DNA from: a virus
Taxonomy: Duplodnaviria; Heunggongvirae; Uroviricota; Caudoviricetes
Reading direction: 5' to 3' (one strand)
Virus record (IMG/VR): IMGVR_UViG_2690316346_000006
Coordinates: 1-13,493 of that record
Length of the DNA: 13,493 nt
Shown here: positions 1 to 13,493 of the stretch, one piece after another
Layout: every line of letters starts with the position of its first letter
Numbering within the stretch: position 1 is the stretch's first letter
Notes under the pieces: model-generated
Database searches by the model: none
Told to the model about the DNA's origin: nothing
What the model saw: the letters and a program-made list of their open reading frames with translations, nothing else
Program-made: the position numbers and the translations under genes

Positions 1-51
1 ATCGGGCATTATCTGAACATAAAACACTATCAATAAGTTGGAGTCATTACC
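1..51 (+). mobile_element. IS1 terminal fragment (insB-proximal end including the terminal inverted repeat); body of the element lies upstream of the window
   Basis: Positions 1-51 are the exact reverse complement of 9926-9976 and 13443-13493, and match the remembered IS1 end ...CATCGGGCATTATCTGAACATAAAACACTATCAATAAGTTGGAGTCATTACC. Confidence 0.85.
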
Positions 52-183
52 AAACGGTTGAAATGTATGCCGCTACTTACGGGTCCTGTAATCCTCTGAA
101 TAAACCAGAGGGAAAAGATGATTTCGACAAAATTTACCGCTTCTTGGAGGACCGCTATATCAAAAGCTTAGAGGACGCAGGGA

Positions 184-561
184 TCAAATCCCCAGTGAAG
201 TCACCATTGTCCTGAGAACTTGCAGAACGTCATGATCATAACTTCCATCCAAACCGCGACGGCGAATTGCTTCTCGTATTACCGGAAGCAGTTCGCTGGA
301 AATCTCGGTGCATATTTCACCTGATAATACGCTTGGCTCAAGTGAGAATATTGGTGAACTTACGGTCTTGGTCTCGACAGTTTCAGAGTCAGTGCCAACA
401 TTATAAAGCTCAACGAAAGCGGTCTTGATTTTCCGGGCCAGATCTTTTGCTGGCTCGCTTGCAATATCTTTCCCGATTTCTCGCAGCACAGAATGCAATG
501 TATGAGCTGCTGTTTTCTGTACATCAGACGGTAAATCTTTAAATTCCATCGTCAGCCTCAT
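184..561 (-). CDS. hypothetical protein, 125 aa, second gene of a coupled two-gene operon
   Basis: ORF track. Its ATG (559-561) overlaps the stop of the upstream ORF (561-563) as ATGA on the minus strand. An alternative ATG at 547-549 has a GAGG 8 nt upstream. No recognisable motif. Confidence 0.5.
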   Translation of the reverse strand: MRLTMEFKDLPSDVQKTAAHTLHSVLREIGKDIASEPAKDLARKIKTAFVELYNVGTDSETVETKTVSSPIFSLEPSVLSGEICTEISSELLPVIREAIRRRGLDGSYDHDVLQVLRTMVTSLGI

Positions 562-767
562 CAGTCAGTGTTTCTGGCTAACCAGCAACGCGCGCCAGAT
601 TCGGTTTTAAACGTTTTGCTTTTGGTATACGTCATGGCGGTAAACGTTCCATCCTGGTTAGGGAACACGCCGCACACCAGAGATTCGTTGTTGCCAAGAT
701 CGATAGTATCCATGCTGACCTCATTTCCCCTTAACGCCGGGGTGGCGGAACAAAAAACCTGCTGCAT
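561..767 (-). CDS. small hypothetical protein (68 aa as listed; more likely about 50 aa from the internal ATG at 711-713)
   Basis: The internal ATG is preceded on the minus strand by TGAGGTcagcATG, a good Shine-Dalgarno; the listed start at 767 has none. Coupled via ATGA to the downstream ORF. Confidence 0.45.
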   Translation of the reverse strand: MQQVFCSATPALRGNEVSMDTIDLGNNESLVCGVFPNQDGTFTAMTYTKSKTFKTESGARCWLARNTD

Positions 768-953
768 AGTTAAAGATTGAACCCTGCCGTCATGTTCTTA
801 CGCCTCGGGCTGGCTACTTAACCCCTGACCACTGTCTGGTAACTCGAAGTATTGCCCTGCATTCTGTGGGGCGGGGTGGGTTGACGCCTGAAACAATAGC
901 ATCATTATTTTTTTTGATGTAAATAGCATCGCTATTGTTTTTTGTTGGGGCAA

Positions 954-976
954 GAAAAAACCACCCTAAGGTGGTT
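954..976 (-). terminator. rho-independent terminator for the minus-strand repressor/antitoxin/toxin transcript
   Basis: Plus strand reads aaaaaACCACCctaaGGTGGTT. On the minus strand this is a 7-bp stem with a 4-nt loop followed by a U-run, about 20 bp after the ParE-like stop at 993. Confidence 0.55.
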
Positions 977-992
977 CTGTCGGCGGGAATAA

Positions 993-1283
993 TTAACTGT
1001 TTTTGCCTGGATACTGTCTTCGAGAATGCACAATATTTACTACTTCTATGCTTGATGCTGTTACTCGGTAAAGGATGATGTAGTTAGGATGAGTTACAAT
1101 TTCACGAAGACCAAGAACTCGCTCGCTTGGAGGATACAGGTAAGGATGCTCTGTGAGCGGCAAAACGGATGTTTCAATTCGAATTTTCATTCTGCGTGCT
1201 GCCGCGGGATTTTCTTTAGCTATGTAGGCTACGATCTGGCGCAAATCATCACGAGCAGATGGTAGCCATAAAACGGGTAACAT
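993..1283 (-). CDS. parE: type II toxin, ParE/RelE superfamily
   Basis: 96 aa; sequence pattern (LPVLWLPSARDDL ... REIVTHPNYIILYRV ... VVNIVHSRRQYP) is typical of ParE-family toxins. Start overlaps the antitoxin stop (TAATG on the minus strand). Confidence 0.75.
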   Translation of the reverse strand: MLPVLWLPSARDDLRQIVAYIAKENPAAARRMKIRIETSVLPLTEHPYLYPPSERVLGLREIVTHPNYIILYRVTASSIEVVNIVHSRRQYPGKNS

Positions 1284-1477
1284 TATTCACCTCTGTGAGT
1301 TGCAGCAGCAATTTGGGCAATAATTTGTTCCATTTCCGCCATTACCTCATCATGCGGAATCGCCGGGCGGGGATCCGCGAGGCTTGCTGCTACTTTGGCC
1401 CGCAGCCATTCGTTGTAACTATTTTCTTGCTCAACTGTCTCAAATTCTGAAACCATTGGGGAAAGGACTGTACTCAT
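1283..1477 (-). CDS. paaA: small antitoxin, PaaA2-like, partner of the ParE-like toxin
   Basis: 64 aa, directly upstream of and overlapping the toxin gene. Segment SPMVSEFETVEQENSYNEWLRAKVAASLADPRPAIPHDEV matches my recollection of PaaA2 from the O157 paaR2-paaA2-parE2 system. AGGAGA lies 10 nt upstream of the ATG. Confidence 0.65.
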   Translation of the reverse strand: MSTVLSPMVSEFETVEQENSYNEWLRAKVAASLADPRPAIPHDEVMAEMEQIIAQIAAATHRGE

Positions 1478-1496
1478 TTTACATATCTCCTCTGAT

Positions 1497-1997
1497 TTAG
1501 GCGCGACGGCCTTTTTGTGCAGCTAACCACCGCGCAACCGTACGATCCATTGATTCTTTTTTATCTTTCATCTCCTGAAGCATGTGTTCTTGATCTTCTT
1601 TCGGAAAAGCTCTGAACGTATGGATTAAATCTCGTTCCATCGGCTCTACGGCAAACGGTAGTTCATCCTCTGTTTGTTCTGTGTCTGCTGGTAATGCGAC
1701 TATGTTATCTTGCTGTGGTTCTCGACAATACATCCTTGCAATTTGCAGCAAATCTACCATGTCTGGCCTGATTGACTCAGGGGGAACTTTCAGTAAGCCA
1801 GCAAACTTTAGAACAGCCTCAAGGTTTAGTGGGGTTTGACCATTTAGGTAGTGACTTACCGCCCCTTGTGTTGAAAACCCCATAATTTCCGCCGCACGTT
1901 CCTGAGTCAATCCCAACTGAGATTTCTTTGCCATCCAGATTTCTTTCAGTCTTCTGGCGGCGTTGAGGTCGGTGTCTGACAATGATTTTCTTTTCAT
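1497..1997 (-). CDS. cI-like HTH (XRE-family) repressor, probably PaaR2/RacR-like; ORF track extends to a GTG at 2027
   Basis: HTH motif region QLGLTQERAAEIMGFSTQGAVSHYLNG. Sits divergent to a Cro-like gene with a palindromic operator between them. The ATG at 1995-1997 (MKRKSL...) is favoured over the GTG at 2027, which has no Shine-Dalgarno. Confidence 0.7.
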   Translation of the reverse strand: MKRKSLSDTDLNAARRLKEIWMAKKSQLGLTQERAAEIMGFSTQGAVSHYLNGQTPLNLEAVLKFAGLLKVPPESIRPDMVDLLQIARMYCREPQQDNIVALPADTEQTEDELPFAVEPMERDLIHTFRAFPKEDQEHMLQEMKDKKESMDRTVARWLAAQKGRRA

Positions 1998-2027
1998 ACA
2001 TCCAATTCTAATAAGATTGCTAATCAC

Positions 2028-2108
2028 TTTGAAATAGTATCACTATTTACTTTTAAAAATAACAGTGCTATTAATTATGCATTGGTAACACATCACATAG
2101 GGCGGATT
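2028..2108. promoter_or_regulatory. divergent promoter/operator region between the repressor and the Cro-like gene; contains the palindrome AAATAGT-atc-ACTATTT (2032-2048)
   Basis: AT-rich 81-bp intergenic region between divergently oriented HTH genes. A perfect 7-bp inverted repeat with a 3-bp spacer is read directly from the sequence. Confidence 0.55.
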
Positions 2109-2372
2109 ATGAATCTTGGAGAATATTTGCATCATTTTCATATAACCCAGAGTTCATTTGCTGAGATTGTTGGCGCATCCCAAGGGATGGTCAGCCACGT
2201 TATAACGGGGCGTGCAAAACTTACAGGAGAAAAAATATTACGTTGGTGTGAAGCAACGGGATGGGTGGTGACCCCACATGAGATTGACAGTAAAACCTAC
2301 CCCAACCCAACTGACGGCTTGCCTGCTGAGTTTCAGGCTAACACACAACCATCGGCGGGGGTTGATTCATGA
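2109..2372 (+). CDS. ydaS: Cro-like HTH regulator (YdaS-like); ORF track start 2082, internal ATG at 2109 preferred
   Basis: HTH motif region ITQSSFAEIVGASQGMVSHVITG. Divergent from the repressor. GGGCGG lies 5 nt upstream of the ATG at 2109. Confidence 0.65.
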   Translation: MNLGEYLHHFHITQSSFAEIVGASQGMVSHVITGRAKLTGEKILRWCEATGWVVTPHEIDSKTYPNPTDGLPAEFQANTQPSAGVDS

Positions 2373-2794
2373 AAATCAAGCATGAACACATCCGCATGGC
2401 GATGAAAGCCTGGGCGCATCCGGACGGTGAAAAAGTTCCGGCAGCTGAAATAACCAGGGTTTATTTCGAACTGGGAATGACGTTTCCGGTTCTGCATAAC
2501 GACAGCAAGCACAACACGCTTTATCTCAACACCCAAAAGATTTTCCGTTGGCTGGATAAAGACACCCCTGACGCTGTTGAAAAAATTCAGGCGTTGTTAC
2601 CTGCGATCGAAAGGGCAATGCCACCTCCGCTGGTGGCTCGAATGCGCAGCCACAGTTCAGCTTATTTTCGGGAACTGGTGGAGACGCATGAACGACTGGT
2701 GAGAGACGCTGATGATTTTGTCGCAGTGGCAATCGCCGGTTTCAATCAGATGAACCGTGGTGGCCCGGCAGGAAATGCTGTGGCAGTACATTGA
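2369..2794 (+). CDS. ydaT: YdaT-like protein (proposed CII-like switch component in Rac-type prophages)
   Basis: 141 aa beginning MKIKHEH..., which matches my recollection of the YdaT N-terminus. Start overlaps the Cro-like stop (ATGA), indicating coupling. Confidence 0.5.
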   Translation: MKIKHEHIRMAMKAWAHPDGEKVPAAEITRVYFELGMTFPVLHNDSKHNTLYLNTQKIFRWLDKDTPDAVEKIQALLPAIERAMPPPLVARMRSHSSAYFRELVETHERLVRDADDFVAVAIAGFNQMNRGGPAGNAVAVH

Positions 2795-2865
2795 CTGACA
2801 ATAGCCATATCGAATCGCTCCCGGCAACTCGTGAGTAAAAAGATTCGGTATCAGAAGAGGTGAGT

Positions 2866-3930
2866 ATGGCTAACGCCTGGCTCAGATTATGGCATGACAT
2901 GCCAAATGACCCTAAGTGGCGAACAATTGCCAGGGTGTCAGGGCAGCCAATTGCAACAGTGATGGCAGTGTATATCCACCTCCTGGTGAGCGCGTCACGA
3001 AATGTCACGCGAGGTCACATTGATGTCACGACAGAAGATTTGGCAAGTGCGCTCGACGTGACAGAAGAGGTAATTGATTCAATTTTGCAGACGATGCAGG
3101 GGCGGGTACTTGATGGTGATTTAATCACTGGATGGGAAAAACGCCAGGTGCTTAAAGAGGACAACGGCAATATTTCGCAAACCGCAAAATCTCCTGCAGA
3201 GCGCAAGAGGGCGCAGCGAGAGAGGGAAAGAAAGCGGGAACAAAATGGCGATTGTCACGGCGCGTCACGAAATGTCACGCACATGTCACGACGAGTCACG
3301 ACAGATACAGATAAAGATACAGATAAAGAAGATCAAAACACTATGGTCCATGGCGTAAAAAACGCCACGAACCAGGCAGGGGATGTTCAGACCGTCAATC
3401 CTGGTCAGCCAGCAGGCTCGACACCGGAAGCCGATTCAGCGTATGCGCTGAAAGCCGATTCGGGCGCTGTGCAGCAGGTGATGACCGCAAGGCCGGAGCA
3501 ATCACTCCAACTGCAGCAGCCTGAAGCCGATTCCGCCATTCAGCGGGAAGCCGATCGGGTAGCCCCGGAAAACACCGGGCAGCCTGTGGGACGAGTGGAT
3601 TATCCGGATGTGTTCGAACAGGTCTGGCGGGAATACCCGTTGCGTGCCGGGGCAAACCCGAAGAAATCCGCATTCAGTGCCTGGAAGGCCAGATTGCGCG
3701 AGGGGGTGCCACCAGAGACCATGCTGGATGGTGTGAGGCGTTACGCGAGATACCTGGCGGCGACCGGGAAAGCGGGAACGGAATTTGTTCAGCGAGCGAC
3801 GACGTTTTTTGGGCCGGACCGGAATTTTGAAAACCCCTGGTTGCTCCCGGTAAGCGGCACGAACAACCAGCGTTGTGTGAATCATATTTCTGAACCGGAT
3901 ACCGAAATTCCGCCGGGATTCAGGGGGTGA
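2866..3930 (+). CDS. phage replication initiator 1 (O-like / YdaU-like), with origin iterons embedded in the coding sequence
   Basis: ATG at 2866 preceded by GAGGTG (track start GTG 2860). Lies immediately upstream of a DnaC-like gene. Contains two clusters of GTCACG direct repeats. C-terminus ends IPPGFRG, as in the second initiator. Confidence 0.7.
   Translation: MANAWLRLWHDMPNDPKWRTIARVSGQPIATVMAVYIHLLVSASRNVTRGHIDVTTEDLASALDVTEEVIDSILQTMQGRVLDGDLITGWEKRQVLKEDNGNISQTAKSPAERKRAQRERERKREQNGDCHGASRNVTHMSRRVTTDTDKDTDKEDQNTMVHGVKNATNQAGDVQTVNPGQPAGSTPEADSAYALKADSGAVQQVMTARPEQSLQLQQPEADSAIQREADRVAPENTGQPVGRVDYPDVFEQVWREYPLRAGANPKKSAFSAWKARLREGVPPETMLDGVRRYARYLAATGKAGTEFVQRATTFFGPDRNFENPWLLPVSGTNNQRCVNHISEPDTEIPPGFRG
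2993..3030 (+). repeat. iteron cluster 1 of putative origin 1: four GTCACG/GTCAC repeats at 10-11 bp spacing
   Basis: Repeats begin at 2993, 3003, 3014 and 3025, read directly from the sequence. Confidence 0.6.
3254..3300 (+). repeat. iteron cluster 2 of putative origin 1: five GTCACG repeats at 10-11 bp spacing, followed by an ACAGATA-rich AT-rich stretch
   Basis: Repeats begin at 3254, 3264, 3274, 3285 and 3295. The roughly 45-bp unit is near-identical to cluster 1. Confidence 0.6.
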
Positions 3931-3936
3931 TGTGGC

Positions 3937-4683
3937 ATGAAAAACATTGCGGCAGCCGGGGTTCTTGAACGTATTCACAGACTTGCACCACAGGGGGCGG
4001 TTCCACCGTACCGGACGGTGGAGGAGTGGCGGGAATGGCAACTTGCTGAAGGACGAAAACGCAGCGAGGAGATTAACCGCCAGAATCGCCAGTTGCGGGT
4101 GGAAAAAATCCTGAATCGTTCGGGCATCCAGCCTCTGCACAGCAAATGCTCGTTTGCGAATTATCAGGTGCAGAACGACGGGCAAAAATACGCGCTGAGC
4201 CAGGCCAAATCCATAGCTGACGAACTGATGACCGGGTGCACGAATTTTGTGTTCAGCGGTAAAACCGGCACCGGGAAAAATCACCTTGCAGCGGCGATGG
4301 GTAACCGGCTGATGGCGAAGGGGCGCAGCGTGATTATCGTCACCGAGTCTGATGTCATGAGCGTGTTGCATGACAGCTACGACAACGGCAAATCCGGTGA
4401 AAAATTTTTACAGGAGCTTTGCGGGGTTGATTTGCTGGTCCTGGATGAAATAGGCATTCAGCGGGAGACGAAAAACGAGCAGGTGGTATTGCACCAGATA
4501 ATTGATCGCCGGACAGCATCACTGTGCAGTGTCGGGATGTTAACAAACCTGAATCATGCCGCAATGAGCACGCTTCTTGGTGAGAGGATTATGGACCGCA
4601 TGACCATGAACGGTTGTCGGTGGGTGACGTTTAACTGGGATAGCTGGCGTTCAAATGTCAGCTTTCCGGGAGTTGTGAAGTAA
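3937..4683 (+). CDS. DnaC-like helicase loader (YdaV-like), copy 1
   Basis: 248 aa with Walker A-like SGKTGTGKNHLAAA and Walker B-like DLLVLDEIG, as in DnaC. Follows the initiator with 6-bp spacing. Confidence 0.85.
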   Translation: MKNIAAAGVLERIHRLAPQGAVPPYRTVEEWREWQLAEGRKRSEEINRQNRQLRVEKILNRSGIQPLHSKCSFANYQVQNDGQKYALSQAKSIADELMTGCTNFVFSGKTGTGKNHLAAAMGNRLMAKGRSVIIVTESDVMSVLHDSYDNGKSGEKFLQELCGVDLLVLDEIGIQRETKNEQVVLHQIIDRRTASLCSVGMLTNLNHAAMSTLLGERIMDRMTMNGCRWVTFNWDSWRSNVSFPGVVK

Positions 4684-4704
4684 TTTTTGTTGGAGGATGT
4701 TTTA

Positions 4705-5430
4705 ATGGAAACTGTATTTGACGCACTGAAAGCACTGAAAAGAGCCTCTTCACATGTGGTGGCGTCCCGCCTTGGAATCAGCCGTGAAGATGCGGTCAAC
4801 GAACTGTGGAAACTGAAGCGCCGTGGTGAAGCGGATAACAAGGGTTCGATGTGGTGGCTGATTCAGGCTGGTGAAAGTGAACCAGTGTCACCGGTACCGA
4901 AAGTGACAGCGCAAATGCTGACTGAGGCGATTGAACAACATGGCCCACAAACGGCGGATGAGCTGGCACTGATGTTCGGGATTACCTCCCGCCGGGCGAA
5001 TTCATCGCTGGCCATGGCAATCAGCAAAGGGCGTCTGATTCGCGTGAATCAGGGCGGTAAATTTCGGTACTGCATACCGGGCGCTGATTTACCGGCAGAG
5101 CCGAAAGCCGCATCCATAGCGGAAACGGATGGTAAAGTCTTTCCTCAGCCAGCAGGTGTTGCGTTACCGGTACAGGAAGCTGCAACACAGGAAGAAATTA
5201 AAACAGAAACTGTGGCGGACATTGTGCAGTCGTTGCCATCGTTCACCGAAACGCAAGCGGATGACCTGGTTTTACCATCGCTGCATATGGCAAACCGCGA
5301 ACTGCGTCGGGCGAAAAGTCATGTCCAGAAGTGGGAGCGTGTCTGCGCCGCGTTGCGGGAGCTGAACAAGCACCGGGATATTGTTCGACAGATTGTCGAT
5401 TCCTCCGGTCGTATTGTGTCGGAAAAGTGA
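4705..5430 (+). CDS. hypothetical protein, possibly YdaW-like; present only in module 1
   Basis: ORF track lists a TTG start at 4687; the ATG at 4705 has GGAGG 8 nt upstream. No catalytic motif recognised. Confidence 0.55.
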
Positions 5431-5445
5431 TTGCCGGGGGCGCTT

Positions 5446-5868
5446 ATGGCAAAAGTATTTACACAGGAAGAGCGGGAAAAAATTAAGGGGCAGGTTGTTG
5501 AACTCGTACGCCAGAGTGGGCGCGAGACGTTACGACAACTGGAAGCTAAAACCGGGGCGACAAGATATTTAATAAGCGTTCTCGCCAGAGAGCTGGTTGC
5601 CAGTGGGGATGTATACAACTCTGGCTACGGGTTATTCCCGTCTGAACAGGCTCGTAAGGACTGGCAAAACGCCCGCAAAAAACTCTCGAGGGCAAAGCTG
5701 AAGAAACCATCTGTGGTTGATCCGGACCTTATCTGGTCATTACCGGACGGAGAAATACGCCGCTACGACAGACATCAGAACATAATCTGTCGCGAGTGCC
5801 GGAAGAGTGAAGTTATGCAGCGTGTACCGGCTTTCTATCAGGGTGATTTTCAGGAGGCGGTACTGTGA
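5446..5868 (+). CDS. hypothetical protein (about 140 aa), paralog of 9117-9539
   Basis: ATG at 5446 preferred over the listed TTG at 5431. The C-terminal ~90 aa are near-identical to the 9117-9539 product; the N-terminal ~50 aa are diverged. Confidence 0.6.
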   Translation: MAKVFTQEEREKIKGQVVELVRQSGRETLRQLEAKTGATRYLISVLARELVASGDVYNSGYGLFPSEQARKDWQNARKKLSRAKLKKPSVVDPDLIWSLPDGEIRRYDRHQNIICRECRKSEVMQRVPAFYQGDFQEAVL

Positions 5869-6282
5869 GTGAAATTAGCTATCAGGCTTCAATTACCGCT
5901 GGCATTCGCATCAAAGGAGAGGAGCATGGAAATAAAACCAGAAGATGAGTTAAGCAATATTGTTTTATTTCCGGTAAAAGAGGATAACCCTCGTAATCAG
6001 GTTAATTTTCTTTATGAGCCATCGGAAAGACCATATTGCCATCACGCTTCTGTCCGGGTTGACGAAAAAGAGCGTCAGGTCCGCTGTAAAATCTGCGGTG
6101 CGGTTGTGGAGCCGTTTGACTGGATGCTCTCTGTGGCGAAAAGAGAAACCAGACTGGCAGATGATGTAAGGCTCTTGCGCCAGGAGGAGCGGGAAAGGCG
6201 AAAAAATATAGAAAAGCTAATCCAGATTGAGCGTAACGCGAAAGCGCGGATACGCAGGGCGACAAAATCCAGAACTGAATAA
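5869..6282 (+). CDS. hypothetical small protein with a putative zinc-ribbon motif (C-H-H ... C-x2-C); copy A
   Basis: Listed start is GTG at 5869. An internal ATG at 5926 has a strong Shine-Dalgarno (AAGGAGaggagcATG) and gives 118 aa. Motif YCHHASVRVDEKERQVRCKICG. Two further copies lie at 9540-9925 and 10695-11035. Confidence 0.6.
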   Translation: MKLAIRLQLPLAFASKERSMEIKPEDELSNIVLFPVKEDNPRNQVNFLYEPSERPYCHHASVRVDEKERQVRCKICGAVVEPFDWMLSVAKRETRLADDVRLLRQEERERRKNIEKLIQIERNAKARIRRATKSRTE

Positions 6283-6309
6283 TTAAATTTAGCACTGTTA
6301 AAAATTTAA
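6283..6309. repeat. AT-rich palindrome TTAAATTT-N11-AAATTTAA immediately after the stop of the zinc-ribbon gene; repeated at 11036-11062
   Basis: Read directly from the sequence; present after copies A and C, and homology between them ends just beyond it. Confidence 0.4.
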
Positions 6310-6421
6310 TCCTTAATAACCTTTTTATTCTTTGCCACGGGTTCCGTGGCGGGAGATTATGCCGCGTGAACATGAAGATGAGGTGTACTGGCAATAGCGG
6401 ACACTACCATTTGTTCTTTTT

Positions 6422-7240
6422 TTAAGCAGCCATCTGATGATATTTTTCCCTGAAGGCTGCCGGGGAGATATTCCCCAGACGAGAGTGACGACGCTGACGA
6501 TTGTAGAAAATCTCAATGTATTCCCGTATTACTGAGATGGCTTCATCCCGGTTATTAAAACGATAGTGGCTCAGGCTCTCATTTTTCAGCGTTCCCCAGA
6601 AGCTTTCCATCGGAGCGTTGTCGTAACAGTTACCTTTACGCGACATTGATGTTTTCAGACCAGACTGCTCCTGTATGACCCGGTAATCGTATGCGCAGTA
6701 CTGTGAACCTCGATCAGAGTGGTGGATTAGCCCGGCAGGTGGGCGCTGGCTCCTGAGCGCCATAAACAGGGCTTTACCTGTCAGCTCTTTTGTCATGCGC
6801 TCTCCCATGGCGTAGCCGACAATTTCGCACGTATAAACATCTTTGATGCCAGCGAGGTACAACCATCCCTCCTGTGTGGCAACATACGTCAGGTCCGCCA
6901 CCCAGACCTGATTTGGTGCTGTAGGAGCGAACGTCTGGTTCAGCAGATTTGGCGCAACTGGCAGATTGTGGTTCGAGTTCGTAGTCGCTCTGAACTTGCG
7001 TTTCTGCTTACAGCGTAGCCTTAGCTCCTTACGAAGACGTGCCAGTCGGTCACGACCAACGATGATGCCATTCTCTGCCAGCTCCGTCTGGAGCCGCCGG
7101 GTTCCATATGTTTCGCGAGTGCGGATATGTGCCACCTTAATCTCCAGTTTTAGCCGCTCATCACTTTGTTTTCTGTCTGAGGGTTCATGCTGTACCCAGT
7201 TGTAATAACCGCTCCTGGATACACCAAATACCTGACACAT
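6422..7240 (-). CDS. IS3-family transposase OrfB (DDE catalytic part), expressed as an OrfAB fusion by -1 frameshifting
   Basis: 272-aa ORF with DDE-type transposase signatures (HSDRGSQY ... conserved acidic residues) in the -1 frame relative to orfA. Confidence 0.8.
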   Translation of the reverse strand: MCQVFGVSRSGYYNWVQHEPSDRKQSDERLKLEIKVAHIRTRETYGTRRLQTELAENGIIVGRDRLARLRKELRLRCKQKRKFRATTNSNHNLPVAPNLLNQTFAPTAPNQVWVADLTYVATQEGWLYLAGIKDVYTCEIVGYAMGERMTKELTGKALFMALRSQRPPAGLIHHSDRGSQYCAYDYRVIQEQSGLKTSMSRKGNCYDNAPMESFWGTLKNESLSHYRFNNRDEAISVIREYIEIFYNRQRRHSRLGNISPAAFREKYHQMAA

Positions 7241-7275
7241 CGCTTCAATGGGAAATTGTTGTCGCCATTGTTCGA

Positions 7276-7578
7276 TTAACGCGTATTTTTCAGCGACTCC
7301 TGTGCAAAATACGCTGTTGCTTTTTTTAATATATCTCGCTCAAGGCGAGCTTCATTTAACGCCTTACGCAGTTGCAGAATTTCAGATTCCAGTTCAGCCA
7401 CCGTGCGGGAACCAGGAGTACCGAGCCCTTTTCTGGCGGCGGTAACCCATTGTCCTAAAGTGCCTTCAGGAAGAGATAATCGGGAAGCGCCTTCACTGAT
7501 CGAAAGTTGATTTTCAAGAACCGTTCTGACAGCTTCGGCTTTGAACTCTTTAGAGTAACGTTGGGTTTTTCTGCTCAT
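7276..7578 (-). CDS. IS3-family transposase OrfA (HTH part)
   Basis: 100 aa, MSRKTQRYSKEFKAEAVRTV..., which I recognise as IS600/IS3-group OrfA. Confidence 0.8.
   Translation of the reverse strand: MSRKTQRYSKEFKAEAVRTVLENQLSISEGASRLSLPEGTLGQWVTAARKGLGTPGSRTVAELESEILQLRKALNEARLERDILKKATAYFAQESLKNTR
7320..7327 (-). promoter_or_regulatory. programmed -1 ribosomal frameshift site (A AAA AAG) within the orfA/orfB overlap of the IS3-family element
   Basis: Minus-strand sequence TTAAAAAAAGC lies where orfA and orfB overlap, as is typical of IS3-family elements. Confidence 0.6.
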
Positions 7579-7698
7579 TATTAGCTCCTTCTGATGCCAT
7601 TCTATTTCAGGAAGGAGTGTCCGTTAAACTCAGGCTACCTCAGGTTATTCGCTTCTGGGCATGGGCGGATCAACAAATGATAGACGGTAATGCAGATT

Positions 7699-7950
7699 GT
7701 AACGCTCGCGGCGTTACAAAAAGTGCAATAGATCGCATCACTTTTATGTCTGGTTTTGCTGATGCGTTAATTCAGGTTGGATGGCTGGTCGAAAATGACG
7801 GAGGGCTTTCTCTACCTAACTTTGAACGTCATAACGGAAAAAGCTCTAAAAAAAACGGGCGGTTACAAACGAGCGAGTAACAAAAATACGCGAACTGAAA
7901 CGAAAAGGTAACGCTGCCAGCGTTACACAAACGGATCAAAAAGCGTTACC
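7699..7950 (+). repeat. putative origin 2 binding sites: two copies of the palindrome GTAACGC-N5-GCGTTAC (7699-7717, 7908-7926) plus half-sites at 7862-7866 and 7943-7949
   Basis: Read directly from the sequence. Located inside the linker-coding region of initiator 2, analogous to the iterons inside initiator 1 but of a different sequence. Confidence 0.45.
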
Positions 7951-7952
7951 AG

Positions 7953-8000
7953 AGGAAGAGGAAGAGGAAGAGGAAGAGGAAGAGGAAGAGGAAGAGGAAG
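7953..8000 (+). repeat. perfect tandem hexanucleotide repeat (AGGAAG)8; encodes Glu16 in the frame that appears to be coding for the initiator 2 linker
   Basis: 48 bp of uninterrupted AGGAAG units counted directly from the sequence. Confidence 0.9.
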
Positions 8001-8355
8001 ATCTAAATACTGATCTCCCCCTCGCCAAAAACGAGCGTCTAAAAAATTCGAGCCGGAGGCTATTGAGCTGCCCGATTGGTTGCCGGAAACACTCTGGCAT
8101 GAGTGGGTCCGGTTCAGACAGGCATTGCGAAAACCGATTCGAACGGAGCAGGGCGCTAACGGGGCGATACGGGAACTGGAAAAATTCCGTCAGCAGGGTT
8201 TTACACCTGAGCAGGTGATTCGACACAGCATCGCCAATGAATACCAGGGCCTGTTCGCGCCGAAAGGTGTTCGGCCTGAGACGTTGCTCCGACAGGTTAA
8301 CACCGTCTCGTTGCCGGACAGTGCGATCCCGCCAGGCTTCAGGGGGTAACGGACC

Positions 8356-9102
8356 ATGAAAAATATTGCGACAGGCGGCGTTCTGGAACGCATCCGCCGA
8401 CTGACCCCGCCACATGTAACCGCCCCATTCAGAACGGTAGCGGAGTGGCGCGAGTGGCAACTTGCTGAAGGCCAGAAACGTAGCGAGGAGATCAACCGCC
8501 TGAATCGCCAGTTGCGGGTGGAAAAAATTCTGAATCGCTCAGGCATCCAGCCGTTGCACCGTAAATGCTCGTTTGCGAATTACCAGGTGCAGAACGACGG
8601 CCAGCGATACGCGTTAAGCCAGGCGAAATCCATCGCCGATGAACTGATGACCGGGTGTACAAATTTTGCGTTCAGCGGAAAACCTGGTACCGGGAAGAAT
8701 CACTTAGCGGCAGCTATCGGGAATCGCCTGCTGAAAGACGGTCAGACAGTGATTGTGGTTACCGTGGCTGATGTTATGAGCGCCCTGCACGCCAGCTATG
8801 ACGACGGGCAGTCAGGCGAAAAATTTTTGCGGGAGCTGTGCGAAGTGGATCTGCTGGTTCTTGATGAAATTGGCATTCAGCGCGAGACGAAAAACGAGCA
8901 GGTGGTGCTGCACCAGATTGTTGATCGCCGGACAGCGTCGATGCGCAGCGTGGGGATGCTGACAAACCTGAACTATGAGGTGATGAAAACATTGCTCGGC
9001 GAGCGGGTGATGGATCGCATGGTCATGAACGGCGGGCGCTGGGTGAATTTTAACTGGGAGAGCTGGCGTCCGAATGTTAGCCATTCGAGGGTTGTTAAGT
9101 AG
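8356..9102 (+). CDS. DnaC-like helicase loader, copy 2 (roughly 85% amino-acid identity to copy 1 by eye)
   Basis: 248 aa with SGKPGTGKNHLAAA and DLLVLDEIG motifs; same length and architecture as 3937-4683. Confidence 0.85.
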   Translation: MKNIATGGVLERIRRLTPPHVTAPFRTVAEWREWQLAEGQKRSEEINRLNRQLRVEKILNRSGIQPLHRKCSFANYQVQNDGQRYALSQAKSIADELMTGCTNFAFSGKPGTGKNHLAAAIGNRLLKDGQTVIVVTVADVMSALHASYDDGQSGEKFLRELCEVDLLVLDEIGIQRETKNEQVVLHQIVDRRTASMRSVGMLTNLNYEVMKTLLGERVMDRMVMNGGRWVNFNWESWRPNVSHSRVVK

Positions 9103-9116
9103 TTTCAGGAGGATTT

Positions 9117-9539
9117 ATGGCGAAACCTTTTACTCCCGAACAGCGGGAAGAACTGAAGACGCGAATTGTGGAACTCGTGCATCAGGACGGTCGGGTCACG
9201 ATTCGGCAGTTGTCAGATGAAACAGGTATCAGTCGTGCGTCTGTCGGTCGCTTATGCATAGAACTGGTCGCAAGTGGTGATGTATATAATTCTGGCTACG
9301 GCTTATTCCCGTCTGAACAGGCTCGCAAGGACTGGCAAAGCGCCCGCAAAAAACTCTCGAGAGTAAAGGTGAGGAAACCGGTTGTTGTTGATCCGGACCT
9401 TATCTGGTCATTACCTGACGGAGAAATACGCCGCTACGACAGGCGCCTGAATATAATCTGTCGCGAGTGCCGGAAGAGCGAAGCTATGCAGCGTGTACTG
9501 GCTTTCTATCAGGGTAATTTTCAGGAGGCGATACTGTGA
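9117..9539 (+). CDS. hypothetical protein, paralog of 5446-5868 with a diverged N-terminus
   Basis: 140 aa; C-terminal region (ELVASGDVYNSGYGLFPSEQARKDWQ ... IICRECRKSE ...) nearly identical to copy 1. Confidence 0.6.
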   Translation: MAKPFTPEQREELKTRIVELVHQDGRVTIRQLSDETGISRASVGRLCIELVASGDVYNSGYGLFPSEQARKDWQSARKKLSRVKVRKPVVVDPDLIWSLPDGEIRRYDRRLNIICRECRKSEAMQRVLAFYQGNFQEAIL

Positions 9540-10007
9540 ATGAAATTAGCTATCAGGCTTCAATTACCGCTGGCATTCGCATCAAAGGAGAGGAGCATGG
9601 AAATAAAACCAGAAGATGAGTTAAGCAATATTGTTTTATTTCCGGTAAAAGAGGATAACCCACGTAATCAGGTTAATTTTCTTTATGAACCATCGGAAAG
9701 ACCATATTGCCATCACGCCTCTGTCCGGGTTGACGAAAAAGAGCGTCAGGTCCGCTGTAAAATTTGCGGTGCAGTTGTGGAGCCATTTGACTGGATGCTC
9801 TCTGTGGCGAAAAGAGAAACCAGACTGGCAGATGATGTAAGGCTATTGCGCCAGGAGGAACAGGAAAGGCGGAGAAATATAGAAAAGCTGATACAGATTG
9901 AGCGTAACGCGAAAGCGCGGATACGCGGTAATGACTCCAACTTATTGATAGTGTTTTATGTTCAGATAATGCCCGATGACTTTGTCATGCAGCTCCACCG
10001 ATTTTGA
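9540..10007 (+). pseudogene. zinc-ribbon small gene copy B, 3'-truncated at 9925 by IS1; the ORF reads on into IS1, giving a chimeric 26-aa tail
   Basis: Homology to copy A ends exactly at the IS1 end (...gcgcggatacgc|ggtaatgac). Translation continues ...ARIR then [26 protein letters not shown] from the IS1 sequence. Confidence 0.7.
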
Positions 10008-10445
10008 GAACGACAGCGACTTCCGTCCCAGCCGTGCCAGGTGCTGCCTCAGATTCAGGTTATGCCGCTCAATTCGCTGCGTATATCGCTTGCTGATTAC
10101 GTGCAGCTTTCCCTTCAGGCGGGATTCATACAGCGGCCAGCCATCCGTCATCCATATCACCACGTCAAAGGGTGACAGCAGGCTCATAAGACGCCCCAGC
10201 GTCGCCATAGTGCGTTCACCGAATACGTGCGCAACAACCGTCTTCCGGAGACTGTCATACGCGTAAAACAGCCAGCGCTGGCGCGATTTAGCCCCGACAT
10301 AGCCCCACTGTTCGTCCATTTCCGCGCAGACGATGACGTCACTGCCCGGCTGTATGCGCGAGGTTACCGACTGCGGCCTGAGTTTTTTAAGTGACGTAAA
10401 ATCGTGTTGAGGCCAACGCCCATAATGCGTGCAGTTGCCCGGCAT
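9942..10445 (-). CDS. insB: IS1 InsB (expressed as an InsAB' fusion by frameshifting)
   Basis: 167 aa, ...[62 protein letters not shown]..., recognised as IS1 InsB. Confidence 0.9.
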
Positions 10446-10639
10446 CCAACGCCATTCATGGCCATATCAATGATTTTCTGGTGCGTACCGGGTTGAGAAG
10501 CGGTGTAAGTGAACTGCAGTTGCCATGTTTTACGGCAGTGAGAGCAGAGATAGCGCTGATGTCCGGCAGTGCTTTTGCCGTTACGCACCACCCCGTCAGT
10601 AGCTGAACAGGAGGGACAGCTGATAGAAACAGAAGCCAC
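10364..10639 (-). CDS. insA: IS1 InsA
   Basis: 91 aa, [42 protein letters not shown]..., recognised as IS1 InsA. Confidence 0.9.
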
Positions 10640-10694
10640 TGGAGCACCTCAAAAACACCATCATACACTAAATCAGTAAGTTGGCAGCATCACC

Positions 10695-11035
10695 AAGATG
10701 AGTTAAGCAATATCGTTTTATTTCCGGTAAAAGAGGATGACCCTCGTAATCAGGTTAATTTTCTTTATGAGCCATCGGAAAGACCATATTGCCATCACGC
10801 CTCTGTACGGGTTGACGAAAAAGAGCGTCAGGTCCGCTGTAAAATCTGCGGTGCGGTTGTGGAGCCGTTTGACTGGATGCTCTCTGTGGCAAAAAGAGAA
10901 ACCAGACTGGCAGATGATGTAAGGCTATTGCGCCAGGAGGAACAGGAAAGGCGGAGAAATATAGAAAAGCTGATACAGATTGAGCGTAACGCGAAAGCGC
11001 GGATACGCAGGGCGACAAAATCCAGAACTGAATAA
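10695..11035 (+). pseudogene. zinc-ribbon small gene copy C, 5'-truncated (lacks the first ~5 codons); mosaic of copies A and B
   Basis: Begins abruptly at the IS1 end with aagatgagttaagc..., matching codon 6 onward of copy A. Its 5' half carries copy-A-type variants and its 3' half copy-B-type variants. Stop at 11033-11035. Confidence 0.65.
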
Positions 11036-11104
11036 TTAAATTTAGCACTGTTAAAAATTTAATCCTTAACCGGAGGGATTTCTGCACCCTCAAATCATCA
11101 GGAG

Positions 11105-11122
11105 ACCGCCCGAAAGGGCGGT
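11105..11122 (+). other. stable GC-rich hairpin with a GAAA tetraloop (ACCGCCC-gaaa-GGGCGGT), 5 nt upstream of the ATG at 11128
   Basis: Read directly from the sequence. No U-run follows, so it is not a canonical terminator; it could occlude a ribosome-binding region or stabilise an mRNA. Confidence 0.4.
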
Positions 11123-11127
11123 AATGA

Positions 11128-11346
11128 ATGGTTACATTATTTAGAAAAAAATATCCGCGAAAGAGTAGAACAACAGAATTCCTGTTTCTCATTCTGTTTA
11201 TCGTGTTGATGACACCGATATCCCCGCTAATTTTTGTCTGGATAATCGGAAAAATAATTGAGCCAGTTATTGAATTGTATAACGACGTGGTATGGGCGTC
11301 ATTCAACACACTGCACAATAAAATTAATCCGTATAAGGAAAGCTGA
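11128..11346 (+). CDS. small hydrophobic (probably membrane) protein, 72 aa
   Basis: ORF track; hydrophobic core FLFLILFIVLMTPISPLIFVWIIG. No clear Shine-Dalgarno, so the call is tentative. Confidence 0.35.
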   Translation: MVTLFRKKYPRKSRTTEFLFLILFIVLMTPISPLIFVWIIGKIIEPVIELYNDVVWASFNTLHNKINPYKES

Positions 11347-12820: not shown

Positions 12821-12825
12821 CAAAC

Positions 12826-12857
12826 AAAAACCCCGGATTGATGGTCCGGGGTTTTTG
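12826..12857 (+). terminator. rho-independent terminator (AAAAA-CCCCGGA-ttgatgg-TCCGGGG-TTTTT), potentially bidirectional
   Basis: 7-bp GC-rich stem, 7-nt loop and a T5 run, read directly from the sequence; 6 bp after the stop of the small ORF. Confidence 0.8.
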
Positions 12858-13195
12858 AAGGAAACAAAACAGAAACAGCAATTGCCGTTACCTGTTGTTA
12901 CCATGGCAAGTAAACGTATCTCAGGCGAGCGCATTGCGCCGTTCTGACGCAGATAAACTAGCCTGGATAGATGGTGCTGGCAATAAAAAATAGCGTTTTC
13001 TTATCGGTGTCGGTAAGATTGCTGCGGGTGCTTGAGGCTGTCTGCCTCGGGTATGTCACTGTAAGGCAGACAGAGAAAAGCCCCAGTTAACATTACGCGT
13101 CCTGCAAGACGCTTAACATTAATCTGAGGCCCAATCTATGTCTCACAAATGTAGGTTAGCCTCTTACGTGCCGAAAGGCAAGGAGAAGCAGGCTA

Positions 13196-13350
13196 TGAAG
13201 CAGCAAAAGGCGATGTTAATCGCCCTGATCGTCATCTGTTTAACCGTCATTGTGACGGCACTGGTAACGAGGAAAGACCTCTGCGAGGTACGAATCCGAA
13301 TCGGCCAGACGGAGGTCGCTGTTTTCGTAGACTACGAATCTAGAGAGTAA
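13196..13350 (+). CDS. hok: Hok/Gef-family type I toxin (closest by memory to HokD/RelF or HokC)
   Basis: MKQQKAMLIALIVICLTVIVTALVTRKDLCEVRIRIGQTEVAVFVDYESRE; AAGGAG lies 9 nt upstream of the ATG at 13196. The ORF track extends in frame to an ATG at 13138. Confidence 0.85.
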
Positions 13351-13442
13351 GAGTGACCAGGCGGGAGAGTAATCTCCCGCCACCTTTGATGTGTCAGGCA
13401 TCCTCAACGCACCCGCACTTAACCCGTTTCGGCGGTTTTTTT

Positions 13443-13493
13443 GGTAATGACTCCAACTTATTGATAGTGTTTTATGTTCAGATAATGCCCGAT
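13443..13493 (-). mobile_element. IS1 terminal fragment (insB-proximal end), element in minus orientation with its body downstream of the window
   Basis: Identical to 9926-9976 and the exact reverse complement of 1-51. Confidence 0.85.

Follow-up and report, generated by a model that had tools for sequence, protein, structure and literature searches.

Two small genes follow the replication genes at two places in a stretch of Shigella sonnei DNA, and the locus raises the question whether they form a matched pair, each pair belonging to its own replication module. We refer to these genes as A, encoding a Ren-like winged-helix protein, and B, encoding a predicted zinc-ribbon protein. The window is the whole stretch of DNA that was analysed and comprises the entire draft contig CXEQ01000138.1 with its 13,493 bp. 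We favor the view, at a probability of roughly 0.6, that A and B are ordinary accessory genes which Rac-type prophages of Shigella and E. coli carry and which move independently of each other, and that they do not form a matched pair bound to one replication module. What we observed concerns the family membership and the fold of the two proteins, how far the genes can be separated, and how the locus is built up from mosaic segments and IS elements; the biochemical activities of both A and B are those that we infer. The window holds the following features.

2860 to 3930, plus strand: replisome organizer (replication initiator) of module 1 (phrog_3729, E = 3e-250).
3937 to 4683, plus strand: DnaC-like, YdaV-type helicase-loader ATPase of module 1 (IstB_IS21 with 69.9 bits, plus Bac_DnaA).
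4705 to 5430, plus strand: DUF1627 gene of 241 aa with two winged-helix-like regions, homologue of K-12 YdaW (PF07789 with 309.8 bits; 57% identity to YdaW).
5446 to 5868, plus strand: gene A copy 1, Ren-like winged-helix protein (DUF977, PHROG 142) of 140 aa (PF06163, phrog_142, Ren motif, AF2).
5869 to 5925, plus strand: 57-nt spacer, in frame with A and B, free of stop codons and holding the Shine-Dalgarno sequence of B (direct sequence reading).
5926 to 6282, plus strand: gene B copy 1, intact, 118 aa, with a predicted CxH...CxxC zinc ribbon and a long helix, PHROG 1621 (phrog_1621, invariant ligands, AF2).
6283 to 6309, no strand assigned: AT-only inverted repeat TTAAATTT-N11-AAATTTAA just after the stop codon of B (exact match).
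6378 to 7641, minus strand: IS600 (IS3 family) at the junction of module-1 and module-2 sequence (ORFs; 100% match to S. sonnei IS600 copies).
7642 to 8349, plus strand: remnant of the module-2 replisome organizer, cut at the 5' end by IS600 and frameshifted (broken ORFs 7617-7880 and 8080-8349; 99.3% to locus L188).
8356 to 9102, plus strand: DnaC-like ATPase of module 2 (ORF; 79% DNA identity to copy 1 by self-alignment).
9117 to 9539, plus strand: gene A copy 2 with a divergent N-terminal helix-turn-helix (PF06163 with 116.5 bits; HTH_24 with 26.0 bits; 75% identical to copy 1).
9597 to 9926, plus strand: gene B copy 2, a pseudogene cut by IS1 after codon 110 (9 of 330 positions differ from the module-2 allele of finished genomes).
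9927 to 10694, minus strand: IS1 (InsA/InsB ORFs; 768 bp, 100% identical to IS1 copies).
10695 to 11035, plus strand: gene B copy 3, a 5'-cut fragment without codons 1-5 and the ribosome-binding site (identical to module 2 of S. sonnei CP023645 but for 1 mismatch over 427 bp).
11036 to 11062, no strand assigned: the inverted repeat for a second time, inside one 375-bp repeat that holds both copies (exact match).

The segment from 5446 to 6309 would come from a lambdoid prophage remnant of the Rac type in S. sonnei, where it would be part of the delayed-early rightward operon and co-transcribed with the replication genes; no promoter-like or terminator-like sites were found on the plus strand from the DnaC-like gene to the end of B. 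The preliminary description had placed the pair directly after the DnaC-like gene in both modules. This holds for module 2, where the DnaC-like gene is followed by A, but not for module 1, where the DUF1627 gene lies between. The gene order of an intact Rac prophage is ydaV, DUF1627, DUF977 and B. As a replication module, module 2 is incomplete: its organizer gene is the 5'-cut and frameshifted remnant left by IS600. The self-alignment of the two DnaC-like copies reaches 30 bp upstream of the module-2 gene.

K-12 YdaW, which lies in the same operon as A and is likewise winged-helix-like, was considered as the orthologue of A and rejected. YdaW is a truncated K-12 version of the DUF1627 gene product, and its similarity to A extends only over the helix-turn-helix with E = 0.054. 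The Rac annotation of K-12 contains neither A nor B; rzpR comes directly after ydaW. Over-expressed YdaW was reported to block the retron-Sen2 toxin RcaT (bioRxiv 10.1101/2020.06.22.160242). Because YdaW corresponds to the DUF1627 neighbour and not to DUF977, this published result belongs to the DUF1627 gene.

The repetition within the window had been read as three copies of B riding with two modules. There is indeed B-like sequence at three places, but only one of these is an intact gene, while the others are IS1-cut fragments, one cut at its 3' and one at its 5' end. As the two fragments overlap by 314 bp with 97.1% identity, they do not represent a simple IS1 insertion. In finished S. sonnei genomes modules 1 and 2 lie in different prophage remnants, and in four such genomes they lie about 0.9-1 Mb apart with an intact B in each. 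That the window has them side by side is therefore due either to a rearrangement through IS elements or to a join made in assembly, and the contig would string remnants of different prophages together via IS600 and IS1. It is a serious possibility, at somewhat less than even odds, that the duplication, i.e. two modules and three B copies in 13.5 kb, is a short-read assembly artefact across IS600, IS1 and near-identical prophage repeats that corresponds to no real chromosomal arrangement. The window being a whole draft contig with IS1 at both tips is consistent with an artefact, and so is the distance between the modules, each with an intact B, in the four finished genomes. The contig departs from the module-1 locus sequence of S. 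sonnei 53G at position 6268, within B, and the 9 differences between B copy 2 and the module-2 allele occur although the flanking DNA is about 99% identical. The flanks of IS600 and IS1 are without target-site duplications, the 3-bp flanks of IS600 being unlike (AGA and GGT). On the other hand, frequent IS-mediated rearrangement is genuine in Shigella genomes, many IS-truncated B variants have been deposited from S. sonnei, and two samples have the same contig on record. As this case shows, IS-bounded draft Shigella contigs can juxtapose remnants of different prophages.

Both proteins are plain members of catalogued families, A of DUF977/PHROG 142 and B of PHROG 1621, and prophages of E. coli and Shigella carry thousands of identical copies of both genes. 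As found, the segment with A and B is of little importance. The preliminary description had recognised neither protein; A was assigned to a known family that is found beside the nin region. With Pfam DUF977 (PF06163, gathering cut-off 22.1 bits) copy 1 of A scored 105.9 bits, residues 1-136 aligning with positions 1-134 of the 134 in the model, and copy 2 scored 116.5 bits over its full length; neither copy differs from an ordinary full-length member. Copy 1 has the same sequence as a cluster that numbers 3511 Shigella/E. coli proteins. The profile phrog_142, 'Ren-like exclusion protein', matched copy 1 with E = 2e-46, copy 2 with E = 2.7e-44 and lambda Ren with E = 1.6e-41. BLASTP of A against lambda Ren returned a C-terminal motif with 50-60% identity over 20 residues (E = 1e-5 and 3e-7). 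The motif common to A and lambda Ren reads NxxxxECRxSxxMxRVLAxY and is a short C-terminal helix motif.

The winged helix that had been proposed for A was borne out by the HTH_24 match of copy 2 (26.0 bits at a cut-off of 21.9 bits) and by the AF2 model, which exceeded a pLDDT of 90 at residues 10-80 and consists of helices 7-24, 29-36 and 40-53 plus a hairpin at 57-64. Foldseek matched it to GntR, MarR and IclR domains with a probability of about 1.0, but with E >= 0.02. A three-helix bundle, a wing and, for copy 2, a helix-turn-helix HMM match are all present in this predicted DNA-binding domain. The CxxC of A (residues 115-118) was rejected as a zinc site since it offers only two Cys ligands and is not kept in lambda Ren. 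Both of its Cys are retained in 94 of 97 close homologues of A.

Lambda Ren shares with A the PHROG 142 profile, the N-terminal winged helix and the C-terminal motif. Both genes also follow closely on the replication genes of the pR operon, P being followed by ren in lambda. We counted the position of A as equivalent, given that A directly follows the loader gene in module 2 and is separated from it by one gene, DUF1627, in module 1. There are also differences. The 140 aa of A compare with 96 aa in lambda Ren, A having an extra helix and a poorly ordered insert of about 45 residues; lambda Ren retains only the second Cys of the CxxC, with F at the first position, and falls outside Pfam DUF977; and the genes upstream are of the organizer and DnaC type for A and O and P for lambda ren. 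Beyond the PHROG profile the similarity between A and Ren comes down to about 20 C-terminal residues and a generic winged helix.

In two-hybrid assays the Rex proteins contact lambda O and Ren (bioRxiv 10.1101/2021.04.19.439022). A literature search on DUF977/LygF/ydaW, Ren/Rex and Ea22 brought up no functional study of DUF977 or PHROG 1621 beyond that of lambda Ren; 'LygF' is a mere product label on DUF977 in some phage records. PADLOC-DB gave no defence-family match for A or B, a sequence-profile search of the PDB with both proteins gave only chance coiled-coil or helix-turn-helix matches, and NCBIfam gave nothing useful for either. A is a Ren-family protein that, tentatively and by analogy, may act like Ren. 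It would then be a non-essential early protein which sustains phage replication and growth in cells with another prophage's Rex-type exclusion, probably via contact with replication or exclusion proteins or with DNA through the winged helix. The earlier guess of an anti-defence factor agrees with the only known phenotype of the family, the anti-exclusion by lambda Ren. For annotation, the label 'Ren-like' is applicable to DUF977/'LygF' proteins.

The two copies of A had been described as having swapped N-termini. These are not unrelated sequences: both copies match DUF977 over the full length without gaps. Residues 1-47 are 51% and the remainder 87% identical, with a sharp mosaic breakpoint near 5590. 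The variable part takes in helix 2 and runs into the start of the recognition helix, and to call it a specificity region is a fair label, while the proposed match to its own replication module fails. This divergent region may be an allelic specificity determinant that was gained by recombination near 5590, and it would not be tuned to the adjoining loader gene.

Copy 1 of B aligned with phrog_1621 at E = 1.1e-55 (residues 1-117 with positions 1-120 of 134), and the same CxH...CxxC and end motifs recur across 60 diverse members of PHROG 1621. In these 60 sequences C54 and C57 never vary, and C38 and H40 do so rarely if at all; the conserved end motifs are NVVxFP at the N-terminus and ERNAKARIR at the C-terminus. 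The AF2 model has strands at 43-46 and 51-54 and a single helix of 55 residues from 63 to 117 with a basic end. The ligand pattern C38, H40, C54 and C57 together with the hairpin strands agrees with the zinc ribbon that had been proposed for B, zinc binding being predicted from sequence and model. At the 50% level 1469 clusters match with E <= 1e-3.

No Pfam family reached its cut-off with B, and 60 diverse relatives matched only sub-threshold zinc-ribbon and coiled-coil families. The TFIIB-type zinc ribbon (PF08271) was rejected with 21.6 bits at a cut-off of 29 bits; it had sub-threshold matches in 8 of the 60 family members. Searches of the PDB and BFVD gave no match for B. DksA/TraR-type proteins, including lambda Orf73, are small phage and plasmid proteins with one zinc site and long helices that are encoded in the same lambdoid accessory regions (PMC8614690). 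Membership of B in this family was rejected: there was no zf-dskA_traR match, the order is reversed with the ribbon ahead of a single helix in B whereas in TraR/Orf73 the zinc site comes after an N-terminal helix, which in DksA is a coiled coil, the ligands are CHCC instead of C4, and B is without the DxxDxA motif.

If A and B were a matched pair they should travel together, and with their replication genes. A and/or B occurred in 4143 of 5426 complete E. coli genomes, but were adjacent in only 1098. Four phage records contained both genes, eight B only and thirteen A only. At the 67 IMG/VR loci with the module-1 allele of A (91-100% identical) B was present in 39 and absent in 28 (42%). Relatives of B in viral contigs were collected by a profile scan from a 16-sequence alignment; at 70 IMG/VR loci with close relatives the upstream gene was DUF977 in 40 and Ea22-like in 30 (43%), and B after an Ea22-like gene was 97-99% identical. 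The module-1 allele of A was accompanied by at least five replication-gene configurations, among them a type-1 organizer without a DnaC-like gene (24 loci), a type-2 organizer with a DnaC2-type gene (11 loci) and a DnaC1-type gene with other organizers (7 loci); other loci had unrecognised replication genes.

Elsewhere, in genomes of Erwinia, Pantoea and Kluyvera and in one phage of Klebsiella, B follows a NinG, RusA or HNH gene and is located where Q begins or close to it, without DUF977; in the Klebsiella phage a small YlcG gene lies between B and Q. No DUF977 gene was detected near distant B genes, and the context of very distant relatives consisted of uninformative arrays of small unannotated ORFs. 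Matches that comprise just B begin at 5897-5899, which places the left edge of the mobile B cassette at about 5897. B would be a separate mobile cassette consisting of its own ribosome-binding site, its ORF and about 40 nt downstream. Recombination would move it among hot spots for accessory genes, which lie behind the ren-like gene, behind Ea22-like genes and immediately ahead of Q.

These counts bear on the model of the preliminary description, a co-adapted A-B unit for each replication module in which the N-terminus of A fits the replication proteins or the origin of its own module and the palindrome downstream is a binding site for B. We regard it as highly improbable, and it is largely refuted by the configurations that accompany A, the counts of genes upstream of B and the non-conservation of the palindrome. 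It is true that in both modules of the window B comes after A at the same distance of 57 nt, that the helix-turn-helix falls within the variable part of A, and that the 1098 E. coli genomes carry the adjacent pair. Yet one and the same allele of A occurs with at least five configurations, some of them without a DnaC-like gene, and at one locus (L005) it stands beside a DnaC2-type loader. B, absent from 42% of the A loci and preceded by an Ea22-like gene in 43% of its own, falls short of the co-occurrence with replication modules that the model expects.

The palindrome was the remaining argument for a co-adapted unit. TTAAATTT-N11-AAATTTAA is present as an exact match at 6283-6309 and 11036-11062, at both complete 3' ends of B as had been reported, while 0.01 matches were expected from shuffled sequences. 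Both copies lie within a 375-bp repeat (5942-6316 and 10695-11069, 96.8% identical) and are therefore one inherited sequence and not independent. The palindrome is not kept beside closely related B genes: its right arm is lost in two loci with a 97-98% identical B (L003 and L005), and neither distant loci nor the DNA after the module-1 B of S. sonnei 53G have the repeat. The RNA fold at this site had -5.1 kcal/mol with z = -1.44, the arms were unpaired in the minimum-energy fold, and terminator prediction and Rfam gave nothing there. A terminator, an RNA hairpin and a conserved operator were rejected on the grounds of non-conservation and the lack of a fold or terminator. The inverted repeat probably has no function as a palindrome, and B would not be a sequence-specific binder of it.

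The frequency of Ea22-like genes upstream of B suggests another partner. B might be a detachable C-terminal module of Ea22-type proteins, which are encoded in the exo-xis region and pro-lysogenic, its place after A being secondary; it would then work together with an Ea22-like coiled-coil protein or as a portion of one. Ea22 proteins are built from modules and vary in their C-terminal domains, and phage 933W has a separate gene for one such domain (PMC8614690). An Ea22-like gene lies immediately upstream in 30 of the 70 loci with a close relative of B, the two genes come in this order, the start codon of one overlapping the stop codon of the other, in the distant Enterobacter phage Tyrion (B 40% identical) and in ArgO145, and in-frame fusions of an Ea22 N-terminal domain with B exist (P0388, P0002 and P0392). 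Such fusions are rare, however, and most members of the B family stand alone, far from Ea22-like genes. B itself gave no match to the Ead_Ea22 domain, which was present only in the N-terminal partner of the rare fusions. Ead/Ea22-like proteins (PF13935) are frequent upstream neighbours and occasional fusion partners of B, and like B they are modular, coiled-coil-rich accessory proteins of early operons. We consider this Ea22 reading improbable and prefer to see B as a separately mobile accessory gene.

The junction of A and B allows for a joint action of the two when adjacent, be it as regulator and effector, as a toxin-antitoxin-like pair or as a read-through polypeptide. The genes share one frame in both modules, with a single TGA and the stop-free 57-nt spacer between them, and the spacing of +61 nt is constant in most paired loci. 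Four database clusters contain DUF977-B fusions of 278 aa, in which the TGA stop is lost. These clusters have single members, though, compared to clusters of 3282 and 3511 members for the separate proteins. The chance probability of an in-frame open spacer is about 0.13 by our estimate, and its recurrence reflects one inherited sequence and not repeated evidence. B has its own strong ribosome-binding site with the Shine-Dalgarno sequence AAGGAGAGGAG before the ATG of copy 1, A alone and B alone are both common, and neither a PADLOC nor a toxin-family match was obtained. We judge a joint action to be improbable and again favor two separately mobile genes.

As an observation on its own, A-B adjacency with a constant spacer is found in about 20% of E. 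coli genomes; together with the fusion ORFs it leaves room for a functional link where both genes are present.

As to the function of B, the protein would consist of an acidic disordered N-terminus with NVVxFP, a one-zinc CHCC ribbon and an amphipathic helix of about 55 residues ending in the basic ERNAKARIR patch. We infer that B oligomerises through the helix and, as a small adaptor or regulatory protein, may bind some macromolecule of the host or the phage at an early stage of development. It is conceivable, if on balance unlikely, that B represents a large class of small phage effectors in which NVVxFP docks on a conserved host machine and the ribbon and the oligomerising, ERNAKARIR-tipped helix inhibit or recruit, e.g., a replication, transcription or defence factor. 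If this were true, the sites of B beside ren, beside ea22 and before Q, as hot spots of counter-defence and host-takeover genes, would fit an anti-defence or a lysis-lysogeny role. On this reading the at least 1469 clusters, which range from Enterobacterales prophages to G+C-rich members that are rich in alanine and arginine, would always lie among early genes. The B family is abundant and conserved, and it would be a cheap target in a phage accessory-gene screen.

The window derives from a Rac/Qin-type lambdoid prophage, of which it holds part of the early-right region, disrupted by insertion sequences. It makes up the whole of a Shigella sonnei draft contig, CXEQ01000138.1 (13,493 bp). Gene A denotes the Ren-like winged-helix gene, gene B the zinc-ribbon gene, and modules 1 and 2 the replication-gene sets to the left and right of IS600.

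Features of the window (coordinates, strand where noted, feature)
1-54 and 13440-13493, IS1 ends at both window tips
993-1477, minus strand, ParE/PaaA2-type toxin-antitoxin pair, directly adjoining the prophage repressor gene
1497-2027, minus strand, cI-like repressor
2082-2372, Cro-like gene
2369-2794, YdaT/cII-like gene
2860-3930, replisome organizer of module 1
3937-4683, DnaC/YdaV-like loader of module 1
4705-5430, DUF1627 gene
5446-5868, gene A, copy 1
5926-6282, gene B, intact
6378-7641, IS600
7642-8349, second organizer gene, 5'-cut and frameshifted
8356-9102, second DnaC-like gene
9117-9539, gene A, copy 2
9597-9926, gene B fragment (copy 2), 3'-cut
9927-10694, full IS1
10695-11035, gene B fragment (copy 3), 5'-cut
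right of gene B copy 3, DUF4014, HNH, 221-aa ORF, DUF551 and hok/sok locus
13026-13350, hok/sok type I toxin-antitoxin locus (Rfam sok model 118 bits at 13026-13200; Hok/Gef ORF 13195-13350)

The ORFs, the second copy of A, the B-like sequences and the AT-rich palindrome reported in the preliminary description were all found in place. Module 2, however, is without a functional organizer gene. A directly follows the DnaC-like gene in module 2 as claimed, but the DUF1627 gene intervenes in module 1. The three copies of B are three B-like sequences, one an intact gene and two IS1-bounded fragments. The finding as a whole is ordinary. Each gene falls into a catalogued family, with identical copies numbering in the thousands, and the reading of a matched pair plus palindrome is not supported. 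The second-organizer remnant contains a GAAGAG/GAGGAA hexamer run (a poly-Glu tract) at about 7950-8000, beside the frame break.

The two copies of A matched Pfam DUF977 with 105.9 and 116.5 bits (cut-off 22.1) and PHROGs phrog_142, 'Ren-like exclusion protein', with E = 2e-46 and 2.7e-44; lambda Ren yielded 1.6e-41 on the phrog_142 profile. The C-terminal motif of A, NIICRECRKSEAMQRVLAFY, aligned with NLVFKECRQSAAMKRVLAVY of Ren at E = 3e-7. In lambda, ren lies directly 3' of the replication gene P, the slot held by A. A is a Ren-family winged-helix protein encoded in the ren slot of the operon; the name 'LygF' in phage annotations is a product label only. AlphaFold2 returned a confident winged helix with one further helix (residues ~7-83, pLDDT 86-96), a disordered linker (87-113) and, at low confidence, the C-terminal helices carrying the Ren motif. 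Foldseek retrieved generic winged-helix regulators only. The CxxC of A was rejected as a stand-alone zinc site because it supplies two ligands only, and lambda Ren retains just one.

The two copies of A aligned without gaps and both matched the whole DUF977 model. Identity was 51% over residues 1-47 (57% for the DNA) and 87% over the remainder (90% for the DNA), with a sharp breakpoint near 5590. Judged from these alignments, the difference is allelic mosaicism within a homologous winged helix, not the exchange of N-terminal domains initially proposed.

Rex+ lysogens reportedly exclude ren mutants of lambda (Toothman and Herskowitz, 1980). The early guess of an anti-defence role agrees, for A, with this sole phenotype known for the family. 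In two-hybrid assays the Rex proteins contact lambda O and Ren, and ren was termed 'likely involved in DNA replication' (bioRxiv 10.1101/2021.04.19.439022). A probably acts in a Ren-like manner, shielding phage replication and growth from Rex-type exclusion. Its winged helix would work via protein or DNA contacts, and the divergent recognition region would set the specificity of the alleles.

K-12 YdaW was considered as a counterpart of A and dismissed: it is a truncated member of DUF1627 that shares 57% identity with the product of the 4705-5430 gene (ydaW lies at 5753-6313 of the K-12 Rac locus L004). Over-expression of ydaW was reported to block the retron-Sen2 toxin RcaT (bioRxiv 10.1101/2020.06.22.160242); because YdaW is a DUF1627 protein, that report concerns the neighbour gene of A. 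An intact Rac prophage of another E. coli strain has the order ydaV, DUF1627, DUF977, B. In the annotated Rac prophage of K-12, rzpR comes immediately after ydaW, and neither A nor B is annotated.

A and B had been proposed to be a matched pair riding with each replication module. At megablast level, phage records contained A and B together in 4 cases, B alone in 8 and A alone in 13. A and/or B occurred in 4143 of 5426 complete E. coli genomes and were adjacent in 1098. IMG/VR loci were chosen by the module-1 allele of A (91-100% identity), 67 of them with enough flanking DNA. B followed A in 39 and was absent from 28, and at least five configurations of replication genes lay upstream.

Replication genes at the 67 A loci
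type-1 organizer, without DnaC-like gene: 24 loci
type-2 organizer, DnaC2-type gene and DUF1627: 11 loci
DnaC1-type gene and another organizer: 7 loci
84%-identical DnaC variant: 2 loci
no replication gene recognised: remainder

E. coli ETEC1703 carries the module-1 allele of A next to a DnaC2-type loader. Selection by B (97-99% identity) gave 70 IMG/VR loci with enough DNA upstream; B was preceded by a DUF977 gene in 40 of them and by an Ea22-like gene in the other 30, at odds with a matched pair. Matches comprising B only started at 5897-5899, just 5' of its ribosome-binding site; B therefore behaves as its own cassette. A functional A-B unit was kept as a rival reading. A and B lie in one reading frame, with only a TGA and 57 nt of stop-free spacer between them (5866-5925; likewise 9537-9596), and databases hold rare 278-aa A-B fusion ORFs in which the TGA stop is lost. 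The shared frame could be due to chance (about 0.13 by our own estimate) or to occasional read-through, and it is weak evidence for a unit.

According to a second rival reading, B is an Ea22 module. The Stx phage ArgO145 carries B 3' of an Ea22-like gene, in the leftward exo-xis region, and in the distant Enterobacter phage Tyrion an Ea22-like gene precedes B with overlapping stop and start codons. This overlap is recurrent (loci L003 5017-6385 and L020 2522-3797), and there are rare in-frame fusions of the Ea22 N-terminal region to B (database proteins P0388, P0002 and P0392). The recurrent order and the fusions suggest a possible functional link of B with Ea22-type proteins. Other settings of B include Erwinia, Pantoea and Kluyvera genomes and a Klebsiella phage, where it is 40-72% identical, has no DUF977 gene nearby and lies 3' of NinG, RusA or HNH genes, often with overlapping stop and start codons. 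There B is at or near the start of a Q-like antiterminator gene, with a small YlcG gene between B and Q in the Klebsiella phage. Phages of Hafnia, Providencia and Morganella have B a few genes 3' of the replication genes.

The palindrome (6283-6309, again at 11036-11062) is exact and, as a specific 27-mer, unlikely by chance; the window holds 22 perfect inverted repeats with 8-bp arms versus 3.5 expected. Both occurrences belong to one 375-bp repeat (96.8% identity) and hence represent a single observation. In ArgO145 and ETEC1703, where B is 97-98% identical, the right arm is altered and the repeat lost, which speaks against a pair plus palindrome. The palindrome was not found beside distant B genes or beside the module-1 B of S. 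sonnei 53G. Fold prediction gave z = -1.44 with the arms unpaired in the minimum-energy structure, so no hairpin is predicted; nor does the palindrome resemble a terminator. We regard it as belonging to the AT-rich boundary of the cassette rather than as a binding site.

B matched phrog_1621, which has no assigned function, with E = 1.1e-55. It reached no Pfam family at cut-off (TFIIB zinc-ribbon 21.6 bits versus 29), and its Enterobacterales homologues are all labelled 'hypothetical'. Searching 1.84 billion representative proteins with a profile gave 1469 matching clusters at E <= 1e-3 (222 at E <= 1e-10), mostly of 100-190 aa. Across 60 diverse members C38, C54 and C57 were invariant and H40 nearly so. 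These members also keep a DPFD turn that follows the second knuckle and two terminal motifs, (N/D)-(V/I)-(V/I)-x-F-P at the N-terminal end and a basic ERNAKARIR-like one at the C-terminal end. AlphaFold2 (pLDDT 73) left the N-terminus disordered and modelled a small beta-hairpin ribbon (43-61) followed by one helix (63-117). B is a member of a large zinc-ribbon/long-helix family and a separately mobile early gene. By eye, the helix has a 3-4 hydrophobic repeat (L77, V81, L84, I95, L98, A105, I109), so that B is likely to oligomerise through it as a coiled coil. The N-terminal peptide and the basic tip would then bind, early in development, a macromolecule of the host or the phage. The role of this abundant family is the mildly interesting remainder.

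It is doubtful that the two modules are truly adjacent. Positions 1-6268 of the window match one prophage remnant of S. sonnei 53G at 99.9% identity, and 6379-9926 match a different remnant at 99.2%; in 53G and CP146292.2 the two lie ~0.9-1 Mb apart, each with an intact B. B copy 3 with 86 bp downstream is the module-2 allele (1 mismatch in 427 bp), while copy 2 has 9 differences from it in 330 positions. The two fragments overlap by 314 bp (97.1% identical) and are therefore not the product of a simple IS1 insertion. The flanks of IS600 and IS1 showed no target-site duplications. From the distance elsewhere, the differences between B copies and the missing duplications, the adjacency is either a strain-specific IS-mediated rearrangement or an assembly join, and in the latter case the duplication is an artefact. 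In finished S. sonnei genomes (53G, L192 10824-13963) the module-1 B ends differently, in a sequence encoding ...KYSPE, with a type II restriction-modification pair (N6_Mtase/Eco57I and BsuBI/PstI endonuclease) 3' of it. At this insertion site the window carries 48 nt of module-2 type, then 61 unmatched nt and IS600. The 61-bp stretch (6317-6377, between the B cassette and IS600) had no match in ~190 loci compared, its own contig excepted.

On the plus strand no promoter-like or terminator-like site was seen between the replication genes and A or B. Two short GC-rich hairpins, GGAGGG...CCCTC and CCGCCCGAAAGGGCGG, lie at 11063-11130, 3' of B copy 3, the latter between an AGGAG Shine-Dalgarno-like sequence and the DUF4014 ATG. 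The hairpin sequence also occurs 3' of B in several other prophages (L001, L006, L007). A perfect 13-bp inverted repeat, CAAAAACCCCGGA-N7-TCCGGGGTTTTTG, at 12825-12857 has the look of a bidirectional terminator; it separates the DUF551 gene from the hok/sok locus.
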